A stretch of DNA of 64,000 bases from the NCBI RefSeq assembly GCF_988243305.1, contig NZ_OZ547136.1. The stretch is one strand, 5' to 3'. Below the pieces are notes generated by a model. The model was not told where the DNA came from and ran no database searches. It saw nothing but the letters and a program-made list of their open reading frames with translations. The position numbers were made by a program, and so were the translations under genes. Positions 52,130 to 64,000 of this stretch are shown here, piece by piece; within the stretch, counting starts at the first letter, position 1; each line of letters opens with the position of its first letter.

Positions 52130-53902
52130 TCAGTTATTCTCTGCCTTCTTCACAACCTGAATGCTCAGCTCAGCCAGTGCAGTCGGGTTAGCAAAGCTCG
52201 GTGCTTCAGTCATCAGACACGCTGCCGCCGTGGTTTTCGGGAAGGCGATAACGTCACGGATATTGTCGGTGCCGGTCAGCAGCATGGTCAAACGGTCAAG
52301 ACCGAATGCCAGGCCTGCGTGCGGCGGAGTACCGTATTTCAGGGCGTCGAGCAGGAAGCCGAATTTCTCGCGCTGTTCCTCTTCGTTGATACCCAGAATA
52401 CCAAACACCGTCTGCTGCATATCACCATTATGGATACGCACAGAACCACCGCCCACTTCGTAACCATTGATGACCATATCGTAAGCGTTCGCCACCGCAT
52501 TTTCCGGTGCAGCTTTCAGTTCTGCTGCCGTCATGTCTTTTGGTGAGGTGAACGGATGGTGCATTGCCGTCAGGCCGCCTTCACCGTCGTCTTCAAACAT
52601 CGGGAAGTCGATAACCCACAGCGGTGCCCATTTGCTTTCGTCGGTCAGACCAAGGTCTTTACCCACTTTCAGGCGCAGTGCACCCATCGCGTCGGCAACA
52701 ATTTTCTTGTTGTCGGCACCGAAGAAAATCATATCGCCATCTTGCGCGGCAGTACGATCCAGAATGGCTTCGATGATTTCTGCATTAAGGAACTTCGCTA
52801 CCGGGCTGTTGATACCTTCCAGACCTTTCGCGCGCTCGTTAACTTTAATGTAAGCCAGACCTTTCGCGCCGTAGATTTTAACGAAGTTACCGTATTCGTC
52901 GATCTGTTTACGGGTCAGCGATGCGCCGCCCGGAACGCGCAGAGCCGCTACGCGACCTTTCGGATCGTTCGCCGGACCTGCAAATACTGCAAATTCAACG
53001 GATTTCAGCAGATCGGCAACGTCGGTCAGTTCCATCGGGTTACGCAGATCCGGTTTATCAGAGCCGTAACGGCGTTCGGCTTCCGCAAAGGTCATTACCG
53101 GGAAATCGCCCAGATCCACGCCCTTCACTTCCAGCCACAGATGACGCACCAGCGCTTCCATCACTTCACGCACTTGCGGCGCGGTCATGAAAGAAGTTTC
53201 CACATCGATCTGAGTAAATTCAGGCTGACGATCAGCGCGCAGGTCTTCGTCACGGAAGCATTTAACGATCTGATAGTAACGGTCAAAACCGGACATCATC
53301 AGCAGCTGTTTGAACAACTGTGGGGATTGCGGCAGTGCGTAGAATTTACCTTTGTGCACACGAGAAGGCACCAGGTAGTCACGCGCGCCTTCCGGCGTGG
53401 CTTTGGTCAGCATCGGAGTTTCGATGTCGAGGAAGCCGTGGTCATCCATAAAACGGCGCACCAGGCTGGTGATTTTAGCGCGGGTTTTCAGGCGCTGAGC
53501 CATTTCCGGGCGACGCAGGTCGAGGTAGCGGTATTTCAGACGCGCTTCTTCGGTGTTGACGTGGTTAGAGTCAAGCGGCAGAACATCTGCGCGGTTGATG
53601 ATAGTCAGCGAGGACGCCAGCACTTCAATTTCGCCGGTCGCCATATCGCGGTTAATATTTTTTTCGTCACGCGCACGTACGGTGCCCGTGACCTGAATGC
53701 AGAACTCATTACGCAGTTCAGAGGCCAGCTTTAACGCGTCCGCACGATCCGGATCGAAAAATACCTGCACGATACCTTCGCGGTCGCGCATATCGATGAA
53801 GATCAGGCTACCAAGATCACGACGACGGTTGACCCAACCACACAGAGTCACCTGCTGCCCCACGTGGGACAAACGGAGCTGTCCACAATATTCTGTACGC
53901 AT
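52130..53902 (-). CDS. aspS: Aspartate--tRNA ligase
   Basis: 590-aa class II aminoacyl-tRNA synthetase. Confidence 0.97.
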
Positions 53903-54211
53903 GAGATATCCCTTAACTTAGCTGCCGGCGGATGCCCCCTGCTGCGCAGGTGACCAAGTCGCAGCGTTAGCTGTATGTCACAACTGAATGAAAAAAGGCG
54001 GCTATTATACTGGAAATTCTGCCGCACCGTAAGAGCCTGGCCCGCGCTGGAACACCTCGTTACCACTTTATATCGGGCCTGAAATCAGACTCTACGCCAG
54101 TTTGCTATAAAGGTGTTGCCCGAACTCATAAAAATTAACAAAATTTGTCGTTCCGCCATCGGCTAATCGCATTAAGGTGAGAGGCACTATTTTGTTTTGT
54201 CAGGAGTCATC

Positions 54212-54778
54212 ATGCTTGAACTTAATGCTAAAACCACTGCGCTGGTGGTGATTGATTTACAAGAAGGCATCTTACCTTTTGCCGGAGGTCCACATACTGC
54301 CGATGAGGTGGTTAATCGCGCCGGGAAGCTGGCGGCGAAATTTCGCGCGAGCGGTCAGCCCGTGTTTCTGGTGCGCGTTGGCTGGTCTGCCGATTATGCC
54401 GAAGCATTAAAACAGCTGGTTGATGTCCCCTCCCCCGCGAAAGTGTTACCCGAAAACTGGTGGCAACATCCTGCTGCATTAGGTGCAACCGACAGCGATA
54501 TCGAAATCATCAAACGTCAATGGGGTGCGTTTTACGGTACGGATCTGGAGTTGCAACTGCGCCGCCGGGGTATCGATACAATAGTATTATGTGGGATCTC
54601 GACCAATATCGGTGTTGAATCCACCGCCCGCAATGCCTGGGAACTCGGTTTTAATCTGGTGATTGCCGAAGACGCCTGCAGCGCCGCCAGCGCCGAGCAG
54701 CACAATAACAGCATCAACCATATCTACCCACGCATCGCCCGTGTGCGCAGTGTGGAAGAGATCCTCAACGCATTATGA
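54212..54778 (+). CDS. yecD: Isochorismatase-family hydrolase YecD
   Basis: Start at [20 protein letters not shown]... (188 aa). Confidence 0.93.
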
Positions 54779-54885
54779 TTTACATCGGTCTGCCGCAATG
54801 GTCGCATCCTAAATGGGTGCGGTTGGGGATCACCAGCCTTGAAGAGTATGCCCGCCACTTTAACTGCGTGATACGGAATTTTTAA
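54775..54885 (+). pseudogene. yecE: 5' fragment of yecE, interrupted by prophage integration
   Basis: ATG overlaps the yecD stop (ATGA) and encodes [32 protein letters not shown], matching recalled YecE for about 32 codons; the frame then diverges and stops after 4 codons (IRNF*). Confidence 0.8.
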
Positions 54886-54997
54886 AAATCACTAAAGAAC
54901 GCCCAAGAGCATGTTTTTTATTTAGAAGAATCAAAGCGTTGTATTTCCATGTCATATAAAAATCGGCAAAGTTCATATGTAACAAAGTGTCCCAATC

Positions 54998-55046
54998 ATG
55001 CCCCAAAATGCCCCACAACAAATATTTTTGCCCCATGCATGCCCCA
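54998..55046 (+). repeat. Four direct repeats of (A)TGCCCCA in the prophage arm
   Basis: atgcccca at 54998, 55008, 55039 and tgcccca at 55029. Confidence 0.6.
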
Positions 55047-55067
55047 AAAAATCACTTTCCTTCACCC

Positions 55068-55119
55068 TTGACACTGTTTATCCATACAGTTAAAAATGAT
55101 ACTGTATACAAACACAGTG
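55068..55119 (+). promoter_or_regulatory. Promoter with two tandem LexA boxes upstream of the dinI-like gene
   Basis: TTGACA at 55068-55073; CTGT-N8-ACAG boxes at 55072-55091 (cactgtttatccatacagtt) and 55100-55119 (tactgtatacaaacacagtg); RBS agaggg before the ATG. Confidence 0.75.
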
Positions 55120-55132
55120 TAGAGGGACTTTT

Positions 55133-55381
55133 ATGCGTATTGAAATCTGCATAGCCAAAGAAAAAATGACTAAAATGCCAACCGGTGCTGTGGATGCGTT
55201 AAAGGAAGAATTAACTCGGCGCATCAGTAAGCGTTATGACGATGTAGAAGTGATCGTAAAAGCCACCAGCAATGATGGGCTTTCTGTTACACGCACAGCA
55301 GATAAGGATTCTGCAAAAACATTTGTTCAGGAGACTCTGAAAGATACCTGGGAGTCTGCTGACGAGTGGTTTGTTCACTAA
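55133..55381 (+). CDS. DinI-family DNA-damage-inducible protein (prophage-encoded)
   Basis: 82-aa [12 protein letters not shown]...[11 protein letters not shown] resembling E. coli DinI (MRIEVTIAK...TWESADDWFV). Confidence 0.85.
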
Positions 55382-55449
55382 TAAACACGTAAAATCGGTA
55401 ACGGCTGGAAATCATTCAATACTCGCACTATCGAAAGTTCACCAGCCAA

Positions 55450-55495
55450 CCGCAGCACGTCCTGCATACGTCGTGTCTGCGGTTTTTCTTTTTCG
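55450..55495 (+). terminator. Hairpin and T-run downstream of the dinI-like gene
   Basis: ccgcagcacgtcctgcatacgtcgtgtctgcgg followed by tttttctttttcg. Confidence 0.55.
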
Positions 55496-55496
55496 C

Positions 55497-55766
55497 TTAC
55501 ATTGTGTCTGGTTCTTCCGGCCACTCAATATCAGGTGCAGTTGATGTATCAACACGGTTCAGCAACACCCGATATTTATTCCATGCCTCCAGCAACGATC
55601 TTTCTTCCTCCGTTGCGATTTCCAGATCTACAGCATCCTGCAGTGGCGCAATATACTCACTGAATTCCTGGATGTAGAACTGTGTGGTGACGGTCTTCCA
55701 GCCATTCGGCTCCTGCTGTATCGAAGCATACCAGGCTATTTCAATATCGCTATGCTGCGGCAGCAT
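55497..55766 (-). pseudogene. Tail fiber assembly protein remnant (C-terminal Tfa domain with unrelated N-terminus)
   Basis: C-terminal about 50 aa ([45 protein letters not shown]) near-identical to the full tfa at 56546-57130; about 150 bp of DNA is a direct repeat of the tfa 3' end. Confidence 0.7.
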
Positions 55767-55822
55767 TTAACCCCTTGTAATTCATCGCCATAATTGATTT
55801 AATTCACAAATAAAACTATAAC

Positions 55823-56491
55823 ATGGTGAAATCAATGAAAAAAAACACAGATGATGGGGCTAAAATTTACACACCACTTACCCTAAAGCTTTATGACTGG
55901 TGGGTTTTGGGAGTATCAAATCGGCTTGCATGGGGATGTCCTACAAAGGAACACCTTCTTCCACACTTTCTGGAACATTTAGGTAACAACCATCTGGATA
56001 TTGGTGTTGGAACTGGGTTTTATCTTACTCACGTACCTGAGAGTAGTCTGATATCTTTAATGGATTTGAACGAAGCTAGCCTGAACGCGGCATCTACAAG
56101 GGCTGGGGAATCAAAAATTAAACATAAAATTAGCCATGATGTTTTTGAACCTTATCCCGCGGCGTTACATGGTCAATTTGATTCCATTTCCATGTTTTAC
56201 CTTCTTCACTGCCTGCCTGGAAATATATCTACAAAAAGCTGTGTAATACGCAATGCGGCGCAGGCCTTAACTGACGATGGAACTCTATACGGAGCCACAA
56301 TTCTTGGCGATGGAGTTGTGCACAATAGCTTCGGTCAAAAACTGATGCGCATTTACAATCAGAAAGGCATCTTTTCAAACACAAAAGATTCCGAAGAAGG
56401 CTTAACACATATACTCTCAGAGCATTTCGAGAATGTTAAAACCAAGGTTCAAGGTACTGTAGTAATGTTTTCCGCTTCAGGGAAAAAATAG
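55823..56491 (+). CDS. Class I SAM-dependent methyltransferase of unknown specificity (prophage moron); start may be the ATG at 55835
   Basis: 222-aa ORF with Rossmann motif I (LDIGVGTGFY), acidic post-I residue (LMDLNE) and motif II-like FDSISMFYLLHCLP; no DNA-methyltransferase motifs (DPPY or PC dipeptide); local composition visibly AT-rich. Confidence 0.8.
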   Translation: MVKSMKKNTDDGAKIYTPLTLKLYDWWVLGVSNRLAWGCPTKEHLLPHFLEHLGNNHLDIGVGTGFYLTHVPESSLISLMDLNEASLNAASTRAGESKIKHKISHDVFEPYPAALHGQFDSISMFYLLHCLPGNISTKSCVIRNAAQALTDDGTLYGATILGDGVVHNSFGQKLMRIYNQKGIFSNTKDSEEGLTHILSEHFENVKTKVQGTVVMFSASGKK

Positions 56492-56545: not shown

Positions 56546-57130
56546 TTACTCACTGACAGGGTTCGTAGGCCACTCAATATCAGGTGCAGTTGATGTATCA
56601 ACACGGTTCAGCAACACCCGATACTTCTTCCAGGCTTCCAGCAACGAGTTTTCTTCCTCCGTTGCGATTTCCAGATCTGCAGCATCCTGAAGCGGCGCAA
56701 TATGCTCACTGGCTACCTGCATCAGGTTGTTTTTTGTTTCTTCCGCCTCCCGGATCCGGAACAGTTTTTCTGCTTCCGTATCCTTCACCCAGGCTGTGCC
56801 GTTCCACTTCTGAAACTCCCCTTCCGGCGATAACCAGGTAACATTTTCCGGTAACGGACCGAGTTCAGAAATAAATAACGCGTCGCCGGAAGCCACGTCA
56901 TAAACCGTTTTACCCCGATGGTCTTCAAAGAGATGCCACGATGACTCATCACTGTTGAAAACAGCCACGAAGCCAGCAGGAATATCTGGTGGTGCAATAT
57001 CGGTACTGTTTGCTGGCAGACCTGTATGAGGCGGAATATATGCGTCACCTTCACCAATAAATTCATTAGTTCCGGCCAGCAGATTATAAATTTTTATGGT
57101 CCGTGGTTGTTCACTCATTCTGAATGCCAT
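56546..57130 (-). CDS. tfa: Tail fiber assembly protein Tfa
   Basis: 194-aa ORF overlapping the stf stop by 1 nt; matches lambdoid Tfa. Confidence 0.92.
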
Positions 57131-59826
57131 TATGCAAGCCTCACAATGTAGTTAAATGCGATGTTTTTGACGGTGTTTTCCGCGTTACCCGCAGCGTTAA
57201 CGGTGATGGTATGTCCATGTGAACCAATCGCAACGGAGTGCGTATGAGCACCAATACCGACAGTATGCGCGTGTGCACCTGCAGATGCTGCTGTGCCGGA
57301 CAGTGAGTGGCTATGATTACCATCTGTACTGGTATTCGCTAACCACCCCGTAGACATACCTACTGAGCCTTGTACACCCCAGGTATTTTGACCTGAGCTT
57401 GTATAACCATATTGATAAGTATCTTTAAAAACACTGGGGTTAAATCGACGGCCATCTCTATGGCTGTGATTACCAGCTGCATTCGTGCTGCCACTTAAAC
57501 TATGGGTATGCGCACCAGTGTTATTCGTGGATTTAGTGCCGTAATCAAACGACGATGTGGTTTTCGTCCCCAAATCCGTACTGGATGCGCTGGCGCTGTG
57601 GGTGTGCGATTTAATGCCGTCCCGTTCCTGAGACAATACGGCACGACCACTGGCAGGTTTGCCCTTAATCGTCCAGCCACGCATATCAGGGATCACGCCT
57701 GACGGATAAGCGGCTGCAAGTTCCGGGTAGGCAGATTTGTCAAAAGTCTGCCCCTGCATCAGGGCATAACCAGACGGAACGGTATCCGATGGCCACGGGA
57801 TTGGTGCGCCAGGCGGATAAAACTGCTCTGATGGCGTATAGAGTGAATAAACTGTACCGTCCGTTAACCCTTCCGGCTTATTAGCAGAATATGCTGGTGA
57901 CGTATGAATCGTCACGCTGGCATTACTGGTATAATCCCATTGAATATTTACACCAGTCGCATAATTTCCGATTGCAACGTAAATATCGTAAGTATCACCA
58001 GATGTATTGACCCAGGCAAAATTTGTAAACCCTGTCGATGTGCGCTGCCATAAAGCACCAGTAATCCCCTTCGGATTACCATTACCTGCACGCAAAACAA
58101 GTTCAGATATACCTGCCTGTTGAGGTGAACCGACGTTAAATCCAGCGCCACCAATCAACGTAATTGAAACAACAGAACTCGCCTGTGGCATGGTTACCGT
58201 TGCTAATTTGAACCAACCAGCACCACCGCTGAATGACATTGTTGTTGAGTTAAGCGTACCAATATCTTTCGGCGTCAGTGTTATATCCTCCGAAAGCGCC
58301 TTACCATTCACCTTACGGTCAGAAGGTACCCGATCATTCGCATTGTCATTCGCTGCTTTAACTGCCTTCGGTGTCGCGGCAAGCGTTTCAGACGTACTGT
58401 TTGTCGCACTGCTGAGCTGTACTATCCCCTTTTTCGTCGTGCTCGCATCCTCAAGCGCCACGGCGGATGCAATATCCTCTGCCCGTTTTGCCGCTGTCTC
58501 AGCGCGCGTTGCTGCGGATTCTGCCGTACTTTTGCTCTGTGCTGCCGCTGTCGCACTGCCAGCAGCCTCTGTCGCCTTTGTGGATGCCGTCGTGGCGCTG
58601 CTCTTCGCTGCTGACGCCTGTCTGGTCGCCTCATCTTTTGAAGCAGACGCCGATGATGCCGATGACGCCGCCGAACTGGCGGACGATGCCGCTGCCGTTT
58701 TTGAGGATTCTGCGCTGGTTTCCGACGCTTTCGCGTTCGTTTCGGATGTCTTCGCTGAGGAAGCAGACCTCGCTGCTGCGCTGGCCTGTTCAGTGGCTTC
58801 GCCAGTCTTCGTTGTGGCTGTTGAAGCGGATGATGCGGCGCTTTCTGCCGATTTTCCGGCGGCGGTGGCACTGACTGAGGCCTGCCCGGCACTTGTTGAT
58901 GCGGCACTGGCGGACGACGCAGCCGCTGTTTTTGAATCTGCCGCAGCTGAGGCACTCTGTCCCGCTGCCGTTTCAGAAGACCTGGCGTTCGTCTCGGACG
59001 TTTTGGCCGCCTTCGCAGAATTTGCTGTCGCCGTTGCCGAGGAAGCTGCGCTGCTGGCGCTCGAGGCTGCGCTCGTTTCTGATGATTTTGCCGCCTCTTT
59101 TGAAGCCGACGCATCCCGGGCTGAGGTGGCAGCTTCTGACGCTTTCGTGGTCGCGGTGGATGCAGAAGTGGCTGCTGATTGTTGTGACGCTGCGGCATTC
59201 GTTTCTGACGTTTTCGCCGCAGCGGCACTGGTGGCCGCCGCGCTTTTTGAGGACTCTGCAGCGGCAGCACTTTTTTCCGCTTCAGTGGCCTTTGTTGATG
59301 CCGTTTCTGCGCTGGAAGACGCTGACTGAGCCGACGACGCGGCCTGTCCGGCTGACATGCTGGCTGCGCGTGCTGAGCCTGCAGCATCAGTCGCATGGGT
59401 TGCCGCCTCACGGGCTGATGTGCTGGCATCGCCGGCTGACTTCTTCGCGGCTGCCGTGTTCTGTGCCACTGCGGACGCGTTACGCTCCACCTCTTCCACC
59501 ATCACTTCAAAACGGCGCAGTGCCTCCGGTCGGACATCATCCTCCGTCATGGCACCGAGAAAATCATTCAGCGTACCTGGTCTGGAACCTTCATAGACGG
59601 TAATGGTCCCGGCATGTGAAGGCGGAAAACCTTCAACCAGCAGGGTGACGCTGTACTGACCATGCTCAACATCCATGCTGTAACGTCCGGCTTCATCCGG
59701 ATTTTCAGAGGCCACCGTGTTCACCACCACCGTGCTGCTGGTTCGTCTGGCCTTCAGCACAATGGTGCAGTTCTGTACTGGTTTTCCTGTGCCATCTTTA
59801 AGCACGCCAGAAATTTTTACTGTCAT
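57130..59826 (-). CDS. stf: Side tail fiber protein Stf
   Basis: 898-aa ORF with conserved N-terminus ([17 protein letters not shown]...), long Ser/Ala/Thr-rich repeat region, and C-terminal HxH-repeat region (HTHS, GAHTHS, GNHSHS, GSHGHT). Confidence 0.93.
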
Positions 59827-59837
59827 ACTTTTCCACC

Positions 59838-59875
59838 AATAAAAAAAGCCCGCAGCAGTGACGCCACGGGCTTCA
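59838..59875 (-). terminator. Hairpin and T-run between lom and stf
   Basis: Minus strand reads agcccgtggcgtcactgctgcgggc followed by ttttttt. Confidence 0.5.
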
Positions 59876-59977
59876 GGACAGTGTAACTTTACGTTTCCTC
59901 AAACGCAGTTCACCCCATAAGGTGGATGAACCTGCGTATCATAACAATATTTACAGAAGATAAATCGGCGTCTGTTG

Positions 59978-60577
59978 TCAGAAACGGTATCCGATACCAA
60001 CAATAAATGCATCCGTTCGCCAGTCGCCACTACCGGAACCTTCATAAGCAAGGTCAATGGTCACGGATTCGGTCGGGTTAAACTGCACGCCAGCCCCCCA
60101 CGCCAGAGACGTGTTGCTGTGGCGACCGTCATCACTTCCGGTCAGCACATCGTGCGTTTTCCCCTTGTTGTCAGTTACGCGGAGATAATCCCCGGAGAAA
60201 GTCGACACACGGCTGTAAGACACACCCGCCATCGCATACGCGCTGAACCATTCATTCACGCGCACAGACGGCCCCGCCATTACGCTGAACCAGCGGTTAC
60301 GAACGGAATCTTCATGCCAGCGGGTATCGCTGTAACGGGTCAGCTGGCGATTCTTGTCTCCTGCATAGCTGAATGACGTCACCAGCCCCAGTGTGTCCGT
60401 AAACTCATAACGGTATTTCACGTTAATCCCGTTCAGATCATCACTGCCGGGGACGTTCGTCGAGGCATGAAGATACCCCGCGCTCAGCGTGGACTGATGT
60501 TCAGACGCCCATGCAGGCGCACCGGATACGGCCAGACAAATGGCTGCGGACAAAATTGCTGCACAAACTTTACGCAT
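59978..60577 (-). CDS. lom: Outer membrane protein Lom (Ail/PagC/OmpX family)
   Basis: 199-aa ORF with signal peptide and beta-barrel ending in the aromatic residue typical of outer membrane proteins (GIGYRF); position between J and stf as in lambda. Confidence 0.92.
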   Translation of the reverse strand: MRKVCAAILSAAICLAVSGAPAWASEHQSTLSAGYLHASTNVPGSDDLNGINVKYRYEFTDTLGLVTSFSYAGDKNRQLTRYSDTRWHEDSVRNRWFSVMAGPSVRVNEWFSAYAMAGVSYSRVSTFSGDYLRVTDNKGKTHDVLTGSDDGRHSNTSLAWGAGVQFNPTESVTIDLAYEGSGSGDWRTDAFIVGIGYRF

Positions 60578-60599
60578 AATTACCTCTCGCTTTTCTGCA

Positions 60600-60635
60600 A
60601 TAAAAAAGGCGTCACTCCTGACGCCCTTTATTGGG
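60600..60635 (-). terminator. Hairpin and T-run between J and lom
   Basis: Minus strand reads aaagggcgtcaggagtgacgcc followed by ttttttatt. Confidence 0.5.
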
Positions 60636-60647
60636 GTTATAAATATT

Positions 60648-63600
60648 TCAACGAATACTGATGCCGGAAGCGGCTTTTTTGGTCACAATCACCGTACAGT
60701 CGGTGATATTGCCTGCCCCCTGATTGCCTTTCTGGAAAATCTTAAACTCCAGAGTGACGCTACCACCACCACTAGGCATATCAATAACTGCACTGTAACT
60801 ACCGGGAATGGCCCCTTTAGTTTCTCTGGATGCGATTAATACGCCGTTTTTGCGAACTTCAAAACCATAACCCGTGTATCGCGTGCCTCCTGGGTTATTT
60901 CCGCTCCCCGGATCGTCATACGCTATACCGTTAAAAATAATGGGCGGAATAATAATCTGGCGGTCAAAGTTATGATCATCGCTGATGGTGACTGTAACCG
61001 TACCGTTTGGTGTTTCCGTGTTACCCCACGTACCGACTTTTTTCGGGAAGGCTTTTGATACAGCTTTAACGAAATCCCCTCTGACCTGGGTCGCCTCCAG
61101 CATGCCCTTAATCGTACAGTTCTGGTTAATCTTGACATTGTTGAGCGTTCCTGAGTTCGCATTCACACTGCCACTGATATCCGCATTTTTAGCGGTCAGC
61201 TTTCCGTCTGATGTCAGGGAAAATACCGGAGGACTGCCACCGCTGGTAATGGTGGGGGCCGTCAGGCGCTTCAGGAACACGTCGTTCATGAATATCTGGT
61301 TGCCCTGCGCCACAAACATCGGCGTTTCATTCCCGTTTGCCGGGTCAATAAACGCGATACGGTTAGCGGCAACCAGAAACTGGCTCAGCTTGCCTTCCTC
61401 CGTGTCCTCCATGCTGAGGCCAATACCCGCGACATAATGTTTGCCGTCTTTGGTCTGCTCAATTTTGACGCCCCACATGGCATTCCATTTATCGTTAGCG
61501 TCCTTCCACTCTTTCGAAAACTCCTCCAGTCTGCTGGCGTTATCTTCCGTCAGCTCAAAGTTTTCCAGCAGTTCCTTGCCGAGATGCGTTTTATTGATCA
61601 ACCCTTTATAAAAATTCAGATAACCTTCCGCATCATCGCTCGCCCGACCGACGGCCTCCACAAATGCCGATTTACCAACGGTGTTCACGCTGCGGATATA
61701 AAAGTAATAATCATAACCTGGCTTAATATTGCTACTGGCGGCTATCCAGTACAGCGCCGTACCAAGATAACGCGCGCTGGTTTCAACCTGCCTGATATCG
61801 ATAATCCGCTTTTCCGAGAACCAGAACTCAAACTGCACCGTCGGGTCATATACAGCCAGTTTCGGGACCGCTGTTATCTGAAAATACCCTGGTATCAGTT
61901 CAATAGTGACAGGCGCTGCCGGTGCCGCAATCCGGAACGATACCGATGCCGGATCGCCCTGCTGCCCCCACGCATTTACCGCCCGGACCGTCAGCGTGTA
62001 ACGCCCCAGCGCCAGTTGCCTGAAGCGGTATGTGGTTTCCGCCGTCCGGGCCGTGCTGACCAGCCGCTCACTGCCGTCATCCGCTGTTACGGTCAGACGG
62101 AGCAGGAAGCTCACGCCCTTCACCACCTTCGGCGTGTCCCAGCGCGCCAGCACCTGGTATTCCCCGCTGTCTGCGGTGACTTCTGCGGTCAGGTGCTGCA
62201 CCGCTGGCGGCGTGACACCATTTACCGTGCCGCTCTGGTCGCCGTCAAAGTGCGCCCCGTTATCCACGATGGCCTCTTTTTCCGGTACATGCTGCACGGC
62301 GGTGATGGCATACGTGCCGTCGTCGTTCTCACGGATACTCACGCAGCGGAACAGGCGCTGGCGCAGCGTCGGCAGCTTCAGCCCCCATACGCTGTATTCA
62401 GCAACGCCGTCAGGAACACGGCTCACTTTCACCTTCACGCCGTCGGTGACGGACTGAACCTCCACGCTGACCGGACTCCCCTGCCCGTCAACCAGGCTTA
62501 TCAGCGTGGTGCCGGAAGATGGCAGCGTGATTTCACGGTCGAGCGTCAGCGTCCGGGTCTGGCTGTTTACCGCCAGCACGCGCCCGCCGGTGCGGATACC
62601 GGCATAGTCATCATCGCAGATTTCAATGACATCGCCCGGTACATGGCGAAGCCCTTCGGCACCCACGCTGAAGTCCACGGTCTGCGTTTCCAGCAGTTCT
62701 GTTTTAATCAGCCACAGCCCGGCGCGGTGTGCCTGCCCCCGGCTGGTACAGCCAAAAGCATCCATCTTCGTGACGTTACGACCGTAACGGGCAATGGCCT
62801 GCGTGTCCTCCACAAGCTCTGTCGCCGTCTCCCAGCCGTTATTCGGGTCAATCCAGTTCACCTCAACGGCATTATGGCGGTCCTTCAGGGCGCTGAAGCT
62901 GTAGCGGAACGGCGCGCCATCATCCGGCATCACCACATTACTGCGGTTATAGGTCCACACCTTATCCGACGGTCGGTCCTGCACGAACGTCAGCGTCTGC
63001 CCGTTCCATACCGGCATACAGCGCATCGCCGAGCAGAAATCACTGAGCACATCCCACGCCTTACGCTGTGTGGTCAGCCAGGCATTACAGGTGATGCGCG
63101 GCTCCGTGCCGCCAAAACCATTCGGTACCAACTGGTCGCAGTACTGGCCGATAACGTACAGCGCCCATTTGTCCACATCTGCCGCACCAAGACGTTTCCC
63201 CATGCCGTAGCGCGGGTGGGTCAGCATATCCCACAGACACCAGGCCATGTTGTTGCTGTATGCTGGCTTTAACGTTCCGTCCCAGATACCGCTGTATTGC
63301 CGCGTCTGCGGGTTATAGTTCGACGGCACCTGCAGAATACGCCCGCGAAGATGATAATTACGGCTCACCTGCTGGCTGCCGAACTGCTCCGAGTCCACCT
63401 GCACGCCGACCAGTGCCGTGTTCGGGTAGCACTGTTTCACATCGATGATTTCGGTGTATGACGACCAGAGCGTTTTGTTCTGCAGCTGGTCTGTGGTGCT
63501 GTCCGGCGTCATCCTGCGCATCCGGATATTAAACGGGCGCGGCGGCAGGCTACCCACCACCACCGAGGCCAGATACTGCGAGGTGGTTTTGCCCTTAATG

Positions 63601-64000
63601 GTGATGTCTTTTTCCGTCACCCAGCCACCGTTACGTTGTATCTGAACCAGCAGACGGACTTCCGACGGATTCCTGTCACCCTTTGAGGTGTTTTCCACCA
63701 GTGCCTGTACACCGAAGGTAAAGCGCAGACGGTCGATGTTTGCAGACGTAATGGTGCGGGTGATCGGCGTGTCATATTTCACTTCCGTACCCAGCACCGT
63801 CTCGGAGCCGGAGGATTCAAACCCCTCCGGCGGTGTCTGCTCCTGCTCACCGGCACGGAACACCACCGTGACACCGGAGATGTTGGTATTCCCCTCAGTG
63901 TCCAGCACCGGCGTACTGTTCAGCAGCACGCTTTTTAATCCATCCACCGGACCTTCAACCGGCCCTTCGCTGATGGCATCGATCACACTCAGCAACTGCG
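60648..64000 (-). CDS. J: Tail tip host-specificity protein J; 5' end lies beyond the window
   Basis: At least 1115 aa closely resembling lambda J from [11 protein letters not shown] onward; lambda J has about 20 further N-terminal residues, so the true start is outside the window. Confidence 0.93.

Follow-up and report, generated by a model that had tools for sequence, protein, structure and literature searches.

The question raised by this locus is to whom the terminators around lom belong, and whether their presence makes lom an independently transcribed unit of the lysogen. A preliminary description of the window (the whole 64,000-nt stretch analyzed here, from contig NZ_OZ547136.1 of assembly GCF_988243305.1) had proposed that lom is flanked by its own terminators within the late tail-gene block. 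The window was found to contain the last genes of a late tail operon of the lambda type, and the placement of lom within the tail-gene block was confirmed; Pfam identified the products of J, stf, and tfa. The minus-strand order is J, hairpin A with its T-run, lom, a spacer, hairpin B with its T-run, stf, and tfa, as listed below with the evidence for each feature.

60648 to 63995, minus strand: J, 3′ part (tail tip/host specificity); open reading frame, with Pfam Phage-tail_3, Ig_J, FNIII-A_GpJ, Phage_Tail_Tip, and Ig_GpJ_C.
60599 to 60629, minus strand: hairpin A and T-run, predicted intrinsic terminator of J; terminator scan, folding, lom-less junctions, and compensatory changes.
60578 to 60598, minus strand: left end of the lom cassette, GCAGAAAAGCGAGAGGTAATT, with the Shine-Dalgarno sequence GAGAGG; invariance among about 80 loci, locus L076, and empty sites.
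59978 to 60577, minus strand: lom, encoding a 199-aa precursor of an Ail/Lom-family outer-membrane beta-barrel; open reading frame, Pfam, and matches to solved chains.
59938 to 59964, minus strand: conserved block TTTATCTTCTGTAAATATTGtTATGAT, an extended −10-like promoter motif; alignment of spacer variants.
59838 to 59932, minus strand: element of about 95 nt, a candidate small RNA or else a structured 3′ region of lom; folding and conservation.
59838 to 59874, minus strand: hairpin B and T-run, predicted terminator travelling with lom; terminator scan, folding, and absence from lom-less junctions.
57130 to 59826, minus strand: stf, side tail fibre, 898 aa; open reading frame, with Pfam phage_tail_N, Collar, and Phage_fiber.
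56546 to 57130, minus strand: tfa, tail fibre assembly, the last gene of the block; open reading frame, with Pfam Caudo_TAP.

J starts beyond the window end and stops at 60650-60648, and the ribosome-binding site of stf (GGTGGA) directly follows the T-run of terminator B. Parts of the J-lom-stf region are present in 4691 of 5426 complete E. coli genomes; the closest E. coli match to the window region is 96% identical over 84% of 10 kb.

The product of lom was assigned to the Ail/PagC family of outer-membrane proteins, as the preliminary description had stated. Pfam PF06316 (Ail_Lom), a profile of 199 positions, was matched over the full length of the protein (residues 1-199 of 199; E = 3.7e-122; 405.9 bits against a cut-off of 23). 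Comparison with solved chains revealed homology to lambda Lom (9wso_C, E = 7.7e-49) and to the eight-stranded outer-membrane barrels OmpX (1orm/1qj8, E = 1.3e-18) and Ail (3qra, E = 6.7e-18). The matches to the solved barrels begin at residue 25-29, behind a hydrophobic N-terminus (MRKVCAAILSAAICLAVSGAPAWA) of the kind expected of a signal sequence. An adhesion or serum-resistance phenotype is known only for lambda Lom, from published work (Vica Pacheco 1997, as cited in PMC3594210). Judged by its sequence, lom is a classical lambdoid "moron" for an Ail/OmpX-type outer-membrane barrel. Its arrangement with a terminator on each side is already known, the same layout being present in phage lambda; this much of the preliminary description is textbook lambda biology, and lom is annotated in thousands of E. 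coli genomes.

A hairpin with a T-run was present on both sides of lom, essentially at the positions first reported (59838-59875 and 60600-60635). Hairpin A follows the J stop codon at a distance of 18 nt and precedes the lom ATG (60577). Its stem, GGCGTCA ggag TGACGCC (60625 to 60608), has seven G+C-rich pairs and a GGAG loop, and is followed by the T-run TTTTTTATT (60607 to 60599), which reads U6-A-UU in the transcript. Hairpin A folds with a ΔG of −17.5 kcal/mol (z = −4.1), and none of 200 dinucleotide shuffles was as stable. Hairpin B, GAAGCCCGTGGC gtcact GCTGCGGGCTTT, has a stem of 12-13 pairs (59874 to 59845) and a 6-nt loop, and its T-run (T7 + ATT; U7-A-UU in the transcript) extends to 59838, ending 11 nt before the stf ATG (59826); again, none of 200 dinucleotide shuffles was as stable (z = −3.65). 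Both therefore have the G+C-rich stem-loop and the adjoining U-run on the transcribed strand that define an intrinsic terminator, and terminator action is predicted for each. Hairpin A also folds on the plus strand, and it was on this strand only that the generic terminator scan reported it; its reading on the minus strand, where the T-run immediately adjoins the stem on the 3′ side, comes from sequence and folding.

Hairpins A and B were the two top-ranked sites of that scan, whose total was no higher than chance (7 sites, compared with 5.2 ± 2.4 in shuffles). The reality of the hairpins consequently rests on their conservation in about 180 related loci and on the compensatory changes in hairpin A. 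The scan total would be expected if the hairpins were chance inverted repeats beside T-rich sequence, yet each of them outperforms all of its shuffles, their positions are kept in lambda as well as in the related loci, and hairpin A carries three compensatory pairs. At least four versions of its stem were found (GGCGTCA/TGACGCC, GGCGCCA/TGGCGCC, GGCACCA/TGGTGCC, and GGTGCCA/TGGCACC). Across 12 distinct variants, 84 of 84 cells were paired, and three of the seven pairs were changed on both sides with none broken. When the partner columns were slid, pairing fell to 24-56%. The covariation score was reached by none of 500 shuffles, a figure that is not a probability because the variants are interrelated. 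These changes provide good evidence for selection on the structure of hairpin A; those in hairpin B are confined to one-sided G-U changes. A chance origin of the hairpins is refuted by the covariation and comparative data, and almost no likelihood is left to it.

The ownership of the two hairpins was established by comparing occupied and empty sites in two sets, namely 80 viral contigs retrieved with the Lom protein and 80 loci retrieved with the Stf N-terminal domain. All 80 Lom-retrieved loci share one layout, in which J is followed by hairpin A, the invariant sequence TTTTTTATTGCAGAAAAGCGAGAGGTAATTATG, lom, hairpin B, and stf. In two of the 80 Stf-retrieved loci (L133 and L146), lom is missing and J is followed directly by stf. 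The empty junction consists of the J stop codon TGA, 18 nt, GGGTGCCAgaaaTGGCACC, TTTTTTATT, TGTGGAACGAAT, and the stf ATG, and the same junction was found in 52 complete E. coli genomes, in which an annotated gpJ stands beside a tail fibre gene. The retention of hairpin A at lom-less junctions assigns it to J: it is the putative J terminator, pre-existing without lom, and not a terminator of lom.

The opposite holds for hairpin B, which is absent from the lom-less junctions of L133 and L146. The left end of the cassette, GCAGAAAAGCGAGAGGTAATT, is likewise absent from these empty sites, and is invariant among about 80 loci. Alignment of occupied with empty sites revealed that the insertion starts right behind the T-run of A (GCAG AAAAGCGAGAGG...), 21 nt before the lom ATG, and that its far end is hairpin B with its T-run, ahead of the stf ribosome-binding site. 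In L076, where lom lies in another context, homology with the remaining loci begins only at GAAAAGCGAGAGG. The lom gene of the podovirus Phi24B, also in a different genomic context, has a CCCGC...GCGGG hairpin followed by TTTTTTATTG right behind the gene, and an AGCCCG...CGGGCT hairpin equivalent to B is shared by lambda and about 70 spacers of the lambda type. Since the insertion starts after A and ends with B, and in view of the limit of homology in L076 and the similar hairpin behind the Phi24B gene, hairpin B is the predicted terminator of lom, and A is not. The proposal that lom is flanked by its own terminators thus holds for the downstream hairpin, which is absent from empty sites, but not for the upstream one, which persists without lom.

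These comparisons suggest that a lom moron cassette, comprising a ribosome-binding site, the gene, the spacer, and terminator B, was inserted behind the J terminator of a lambda-like late operon, an account that we consider probable. The insertion would have occurred exactly behind the T-run of the pre-existing hairpin A and ahead of the stf ribosome-binding site, and lom would have a hairpin and T-run on each side for this reason. Two marks of a moron were found, namely extra DNA between genes that are adjacent in related phages (L133, L146, and the 52 E. coli genomes), and a factor-independent terminator of its own downstream (hairpin B with U7). Base composition did not mark lom as foreign relative to its flanks: the G+C fraction of lom is 0.54-0.57, compared with 0.44-0.47 for the 3′ end of J, 0.54-0.63 for the 5′ part of stf, and 0.44-0.60 for the flanks overall. 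The tails of the terminators are alike (GCCTTTTTTATT-GCAGAAAAG versus GCTTTTTTTATTGGTGGAAAAG), and 3-9 of 1000 shuffles score as well. This likeness may have been left by recombination at a T-run during the insertion, and is given little weight in sequence of such low complexity.

On the cassette account, lambda biology suggests how the locus would operate. In lytic growth, RNA polymerase that started at pR′ and was modified by Q is predicted to ignore both A and B, so that lom, stf, and tfa would be transcribed with the late genes; the window does not reach the Q gene and pR′ of this prophage, and the steps that involve them are taken from lambda. In the lysogen, hairpin A would halt stray transcription leaving J, and hairpin B would keep transcription of lom or of the spacer out of stf and tfa. 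Because the cassette has no recognizable promoter, any expression of the window lom in the lysogen would have to come from weak initiation overlapping the end of J and hairpin A, or from leakage through A.

The preliminary description had read the flanking hairpins as consistent with an independently transcribed lysogenic-conversion unit. In its full form, this reading makes lom autonomous, with a promoter of its own and insulating terminators of its own on both sides, and has it transcribed in the repressed prophage. The hairpins are real by shuffling and covariation, and the definition of a moron includes a promoter together with a terminator (PMC3594210). However, terminators on both sides fit a cassette within a Q-antiterminated late operon equally well, and alone give no indication of an independent unit; hairpin A, moreover, is kept where lom is missing. 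Only 21 nt separate the T-run of A from the lom ATG, all of them ribosome-binding region, and, because the cassette starts there, directly behind the T-run, it has no room for a promoter. A consensus scan of positions 58000-62500 found no promoter-like site upstream of lom on the minus strand. Promoter prediction had been suggested as a check of the autonomous unit, and a position weight matrix (PWM) scan of 61100 to 59800 gave nothing above shuffle level on this strand: the best upstream score was 9.3, inside J and with a poor −10, compared with a mean of 9.6 ± 1.4 for the best scores of shuffles. Both scans were crude, and covered the sigma-70 consensus only. Within these bounds, the upstream promoter of its own that is expected of a moron was not found. 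The −10-like TATTAT in the T-run tail of lambda is not conserved in the window, where the sequence reads TTTATTGCAG.

Published expression data are mixed. As the preliminary description had stated, lambda lom has been reported to be expressed in lysogens (PMC7067206, PMC1151598), and lom is described as a moron expressed from the lambda prophage (PMC3594210, PMC7067206, PMC1151598), although it was undetected in one array study of lambda lysogens (PMC2147009). The lom gene of Phi24B is expressed equally in lysogenic and induced cells (PMC3342100). The reported expression of lambda lom in lysogens implies that a promoter exists in lambda at least; according to the literature, little is known about it, and a literature search for the lom promoter matched only PMC2147009. 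The nearest relative of the window allele with expression values is the module in prophage PP6 of EPEC E2348/69 (NC_011601, 1469900-1470800), which is 96% identical over 900 nt, with identical leader and spacer. In this strain, the RNA-seq DESeq2 base means for lom (E2348C_1438) were 2.0 and 0.34 in two conditions, compared with 15 and 6.7 for J, 7.0 and 5.3 for stf, and tens to hundreds for housekeeping genes (PMC8550237, table S2). These counts cover two culture conditions only, and multi-mapping among similar prophage copies could lower them. Autonomous transcription of lom in the lysogen is documented for lambda, and not for the window allele. With its 21-nt leader, the lack of a sigma-70-like site above shuffle level, and an almost silent EPEC counterpart, an independently transcribed unit at this locus seems unlikely, and the insertion of a cassette behind the J terminator is the reading retained here. 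The boundaries of the cassette sharpen the old question of lom transcription in the lysogen, which bears on whether the many lom copies in pathogenic E. coli have any part in adhesion.

The cassette contains a further element between lom and stf. The spacer of the window is 151 nt long, its last part being hairpin B, and most loci have a 70-nt spacer of the lambda type in its place. The 151-nt type was found in three of the 82 sequences of the Lom set (the window, L002, and L012), in 37 loci of the Stf set, and in five phage records. It is also present in 1649 of 5426 E. coli genomes, in 1562 of them at an identity of at least 99% and essentially always beside lom; roughly 30% of complete E. 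coli genomes thus carry it, EPEC E2348/69 and O157:H7 strains among them. Among the viral instances, 100 of 102 lie between lom and stf, while the identity of the neighbouring Lom to that of the window ranges from 47% to 99%. In a search of one representative genome per species, the sole match to the spacer core was a probably mis-binned MAG contig, and nothing was found outside Escherichia.

Alignment of the spacer variants revealed an alternation of variable and conserved segments. The first 13 nt behind the lom stop codon are variable, and are followed by the conserved block TTTATCTTCTGTAAATATTG-n-TAT(A/G)AT, in which n is T, G, or C and which has the form of an extended −10 motif. The next 6 nt are again variable, and lead to an 86-nt body that runs into terminator B. 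In the window, the TG lies at 59946-59945 and the hexamer at 59943-59938 reads TATGAT, which is not consensus; other variants have TGTTATAAT, TGGTATAAT, or TGCTATAAT, and most of the divergent ones have a perfect TATAAT. When the window is compared with P-EibA- or L085-type modules, identity in the body (59931 to 59845, about 86-87 nt) is 93-95%, but it drops to 60-73% over the final 300 nt of lom and to 62-65% over the initial 300 nt of stf. That a noncoding element appears more conserved than lom and stf around it is the new point of this analysis. The predicted RNA (about 95 nt; fold z = −3.86) opens with a 5′ hairpin, continues through a single-stranded stretch that is invariant (AAAGUUACACUGUCCU), and closes with terminator B and its U7.

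One explanation is that the spacer encodes an uncharacterized small RNA of about 95 nt (approximately 59932-59838, minus strand), which would start from the conserved extended −10, end at B, and act on host or phage transcripts. Terminator B would then be as much, or more, part of a separate trans-acting small-RNA gene driven from 59946-59938 as it is part of lom. The conservation of TGnTATAAT/TGnTATGAT in all spacer variants but one, while n and the adjoining stretches vary, points in this direction, as do the identity of the body where lom and stf have diverged, a typical layout ending in a strong terminator, and the wide distribution of nearly identical copies in E. coli. Against this, the −10 is degraded in one variant, the −35 is weak, the −10 of the window departs from consensus, and in a single-sequence PWM scan the site ranked second and was not exceptional. 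No compensatory pair changes were found in the predicted RNA, at a diversity too low for covariation. In Rfam, the spacer and hairpin A matched no family, the best match scoring 22.8 bits against a gathering score of 46. The accessible part of the EPEC Hfq RIL-seq tables has no entry for lom or its intergenic region. Absence from the EHEC Hfq-CRAC catalogue is uninformative because sense peaks within 100 nt of coding regions were left out of it (PMC4104026). The element is also not among the EcOnc, Pas, or 24B_1 RNAs. On balance, the small RNA is put forward as a tentative candidate, with odds somewhat short of even; if it is real, it would be a very common addition to the prophage-encoded riboregulators of E. 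coli.

Several described RNAs and other origins of the spacer were considered and set aside. PasB, the flanks of which are reported with IS009 and isrG matches like those of the window, lies by its E2348/69 coordinates in the I-J gap, in antisense orientation. EcOnc22-24 of Sakai map to the same gap and not to the lom-stf spacer, and EcOnc33 of Sakai Sp6 lies near esterase and lysis genes. The microRNA-size RNA 24B_1 downstream of Phi24B lom has no similarity to the window beyond chance matches (E ≥ 3.3). The spacer shares CGTAAAGTT with the start of lom, and a remnant of another lom 5′ end was considered as its origin; the best local alignment with the lom 5′ region comprised the T-run tail only. 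The "Lom x2" annotation of PhiR49_1, a possible second lom, proved to be one frameshifted gene. A small open reading frame in the spacer (ATG ATA CGC ... TGA, 10 codons) loses its ATG in the TATAAT variants.

Alternatives to a small RNA include a structured lom 3′ UTR, a recombination linker, or a leader of stf. The spacer could serve as a "linker" or boundary sequence that favours the exchange of lom/stf modules among co-resident lambdoid prophages, as would suit its nearly constant position between the two genes, the mosaic flanking genes with homology breakpoints clustered at the end of lom and the start of stf, and the short lambda-type spacer that fills the same position in most loci. The same observations could be accommodated by a structured 3′ UTR that stabilizes lom mRNA. 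However, a promoter-like TGnTATAAT with a free n position is unexpected in a linker, and stabilization by a 3′ UTR needs structure, not 95% identity in single-stranded parts. A linker or stabilizing 3′ UTR is accordingly regarded as doubtful.

The spacer element resembles the Hfq-binding small RNAs of prophages (PasB/EcOnc22-24, AgvB/AsxR, and 24B_1) in general layout. The prophage small RNAs of pathogenic E. coli are short, have intrinsic terminators, and occupy conserved intergenic positions in lambdoid prophages (PMC4104026, PMC8550237, PMC4426718). These positions are the I-J gap, in antisense, for PasB/EcOnc22-24, the pR′ moron site for AgvB/AsxR, and the region behind Phi24B lom for 24B_1, whereas the spacer element lies in the lom-stf gap on the sense strand, and has no sequence similarity to 24B_1. 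At the protein level, the full-length profile match and the likeness to OmpX (1qj8), Y. pestis Ail (3qra), and lambda Lom (9wso_C) place the window Lom in the Ail/PagC/OmpX/Rck family (PF06316, PF13505), with the difference that Lom is here encoded on a phage.

The closest known counterpart of the locus is the J-lom-stf region of lambda (J02459, 18903-19650), which has the same gene order, with a hairpin and a T-run in both gaps. Homology extends to the sequence before the lom ATG (TTTTATT...A(A)AA..GAGAGGT.A..ATG), and the AGCCCG...CGGGCT terminator ahead of stf is found in both. The differences from lambda are also clear. Lambda Lom has 206 aa compared with 199 aa in the window, and DNA identity in the region is about 75% on average. 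Hairpin A is weak in lambda (z = −0.5) and strong in the window. Terminators downstream of lambda J were reportedly the subject of work by Luk and Szybalski in 1983. The lom-stf spacer of lambda, at 64 nt, is without the body of about 87 nt, and in lambda PaPa stf is divided between orf-401 and orf-314, whereas the stf of the window is intact (898 aa).

With other lambdoid morons (a concept of Juhala et al. 2000; for example HK97 gene 15; PMC3594210), the window cassette shares the character of extra DNA, a terminator of its own, and a surface protein beneficial to the host. It differs from them in that no promoter was detected inside the cassette or at its edge, in that its base composition is not clearly distinctive, and in that it sits directly behind a pre-existing terminator. 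The boundaries of this moron are now mapped to the base, and delimit a cassette that carries its terminator, has no visible promoter, and lies immediately behind the terminator of J.

Among species-representative genomes, the spacer core (the conserved, candidate small-RNA-like body in the spacer between lom and the side tail fibre gene, stf) found a sole match, on a 4.3-kb contig of a 'Collinsella sp.' MAG (JAIJJM010000250.1; L292), probably E. coli prophage DNA that was assigned to the wrong bin. At a further related locus, L102, the last 11 nt of lom are fused to a capsid-like gene (at ~1838), and both the spacer element and stf are intact. A defective prophage seems here to have undergone a large deletion that spared the spacer.

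The 3′ tails of the terminators of J and lom (terminators A and B, respectively) resemble each other, GCCTTTTTTATT-GCAGAAAAG (60599-60610) in A versus GCTTTTTTTATTGGTGGAAAAG (59838-59850) in B. The similarity is possibly a trace of insertion of the lom cassette, or mere low-complexity sequence. In two viral contigs, L103 (1367-1876) and L137 (upstream of stf), the T-run of terminator B is interrupted by an IS200-family transposase element, which in both separates the spacer from the ribosome-binding site of stf.

Directly after lom of Phi24B (HM208303; ~1575-1605 of locus L291) lies CCCGCtgtgatgGCGGG followed by TTTTTTATTG, which looks like an intrinsic terminator; ARNold was reported to detect no terminator in the region downstream of this lom (PMC4426718). 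In a solved structure entry, PDB 9wso, chain C bears the name 'Outer membrane protein lom' and, at 206 aa, is as long as lambda Lom.

In stf, the repeat part rich in Ala and Ser (58190-59430) has a GC content of ~0.61 and contains long spurious ORFs, one of 379 aa on the plus strand and one of 335 aa on the minus strand, as well as weak isrG-like Rfam matches on the plus strand, far below gathering. Beyond stf, the Rfam 'RNA family' IS009 (RF02111) falls in the conserved 3′ part of tail fibre assembly (tfa) genes, and the stretch from tfa to the host gene aspS contains the following features:

56589-56787, minus strand, IS009 match in tfa (224 bits, above gathering)
55823-56491, plus strand, class I SAM-methyltransferase gene, between tfa and the tfa fragment
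55540-55743, minus strand, IS009 match in the C-terminal tfa fragment (115 bits, just below gathering)
55497-55766, minus strand, tfa fragment
55133-55381, plus strand, DinI-like gene, next after the methyltransferase gene and tfa fragment, before aspS
52130-53902, minus strand, aspS, a host gene, beyond the DinI-like gene

Since the host gene aspS comes next after the DinI-like gene at the prophage end (52130-56491), the prophage abuts aspS.

At the opposite end of the window, the I-J gap lies just outside it (>64000). In such prophages, this gap carries the antisense PasB/EcOnc22-24 (L087, 2757-2996; L088, 1992-2231), a known small RNA distinct from the spacer element, and, because the gap lies so close to the window, the source genome may also contain a PasB/EcOnc22-24 copy.
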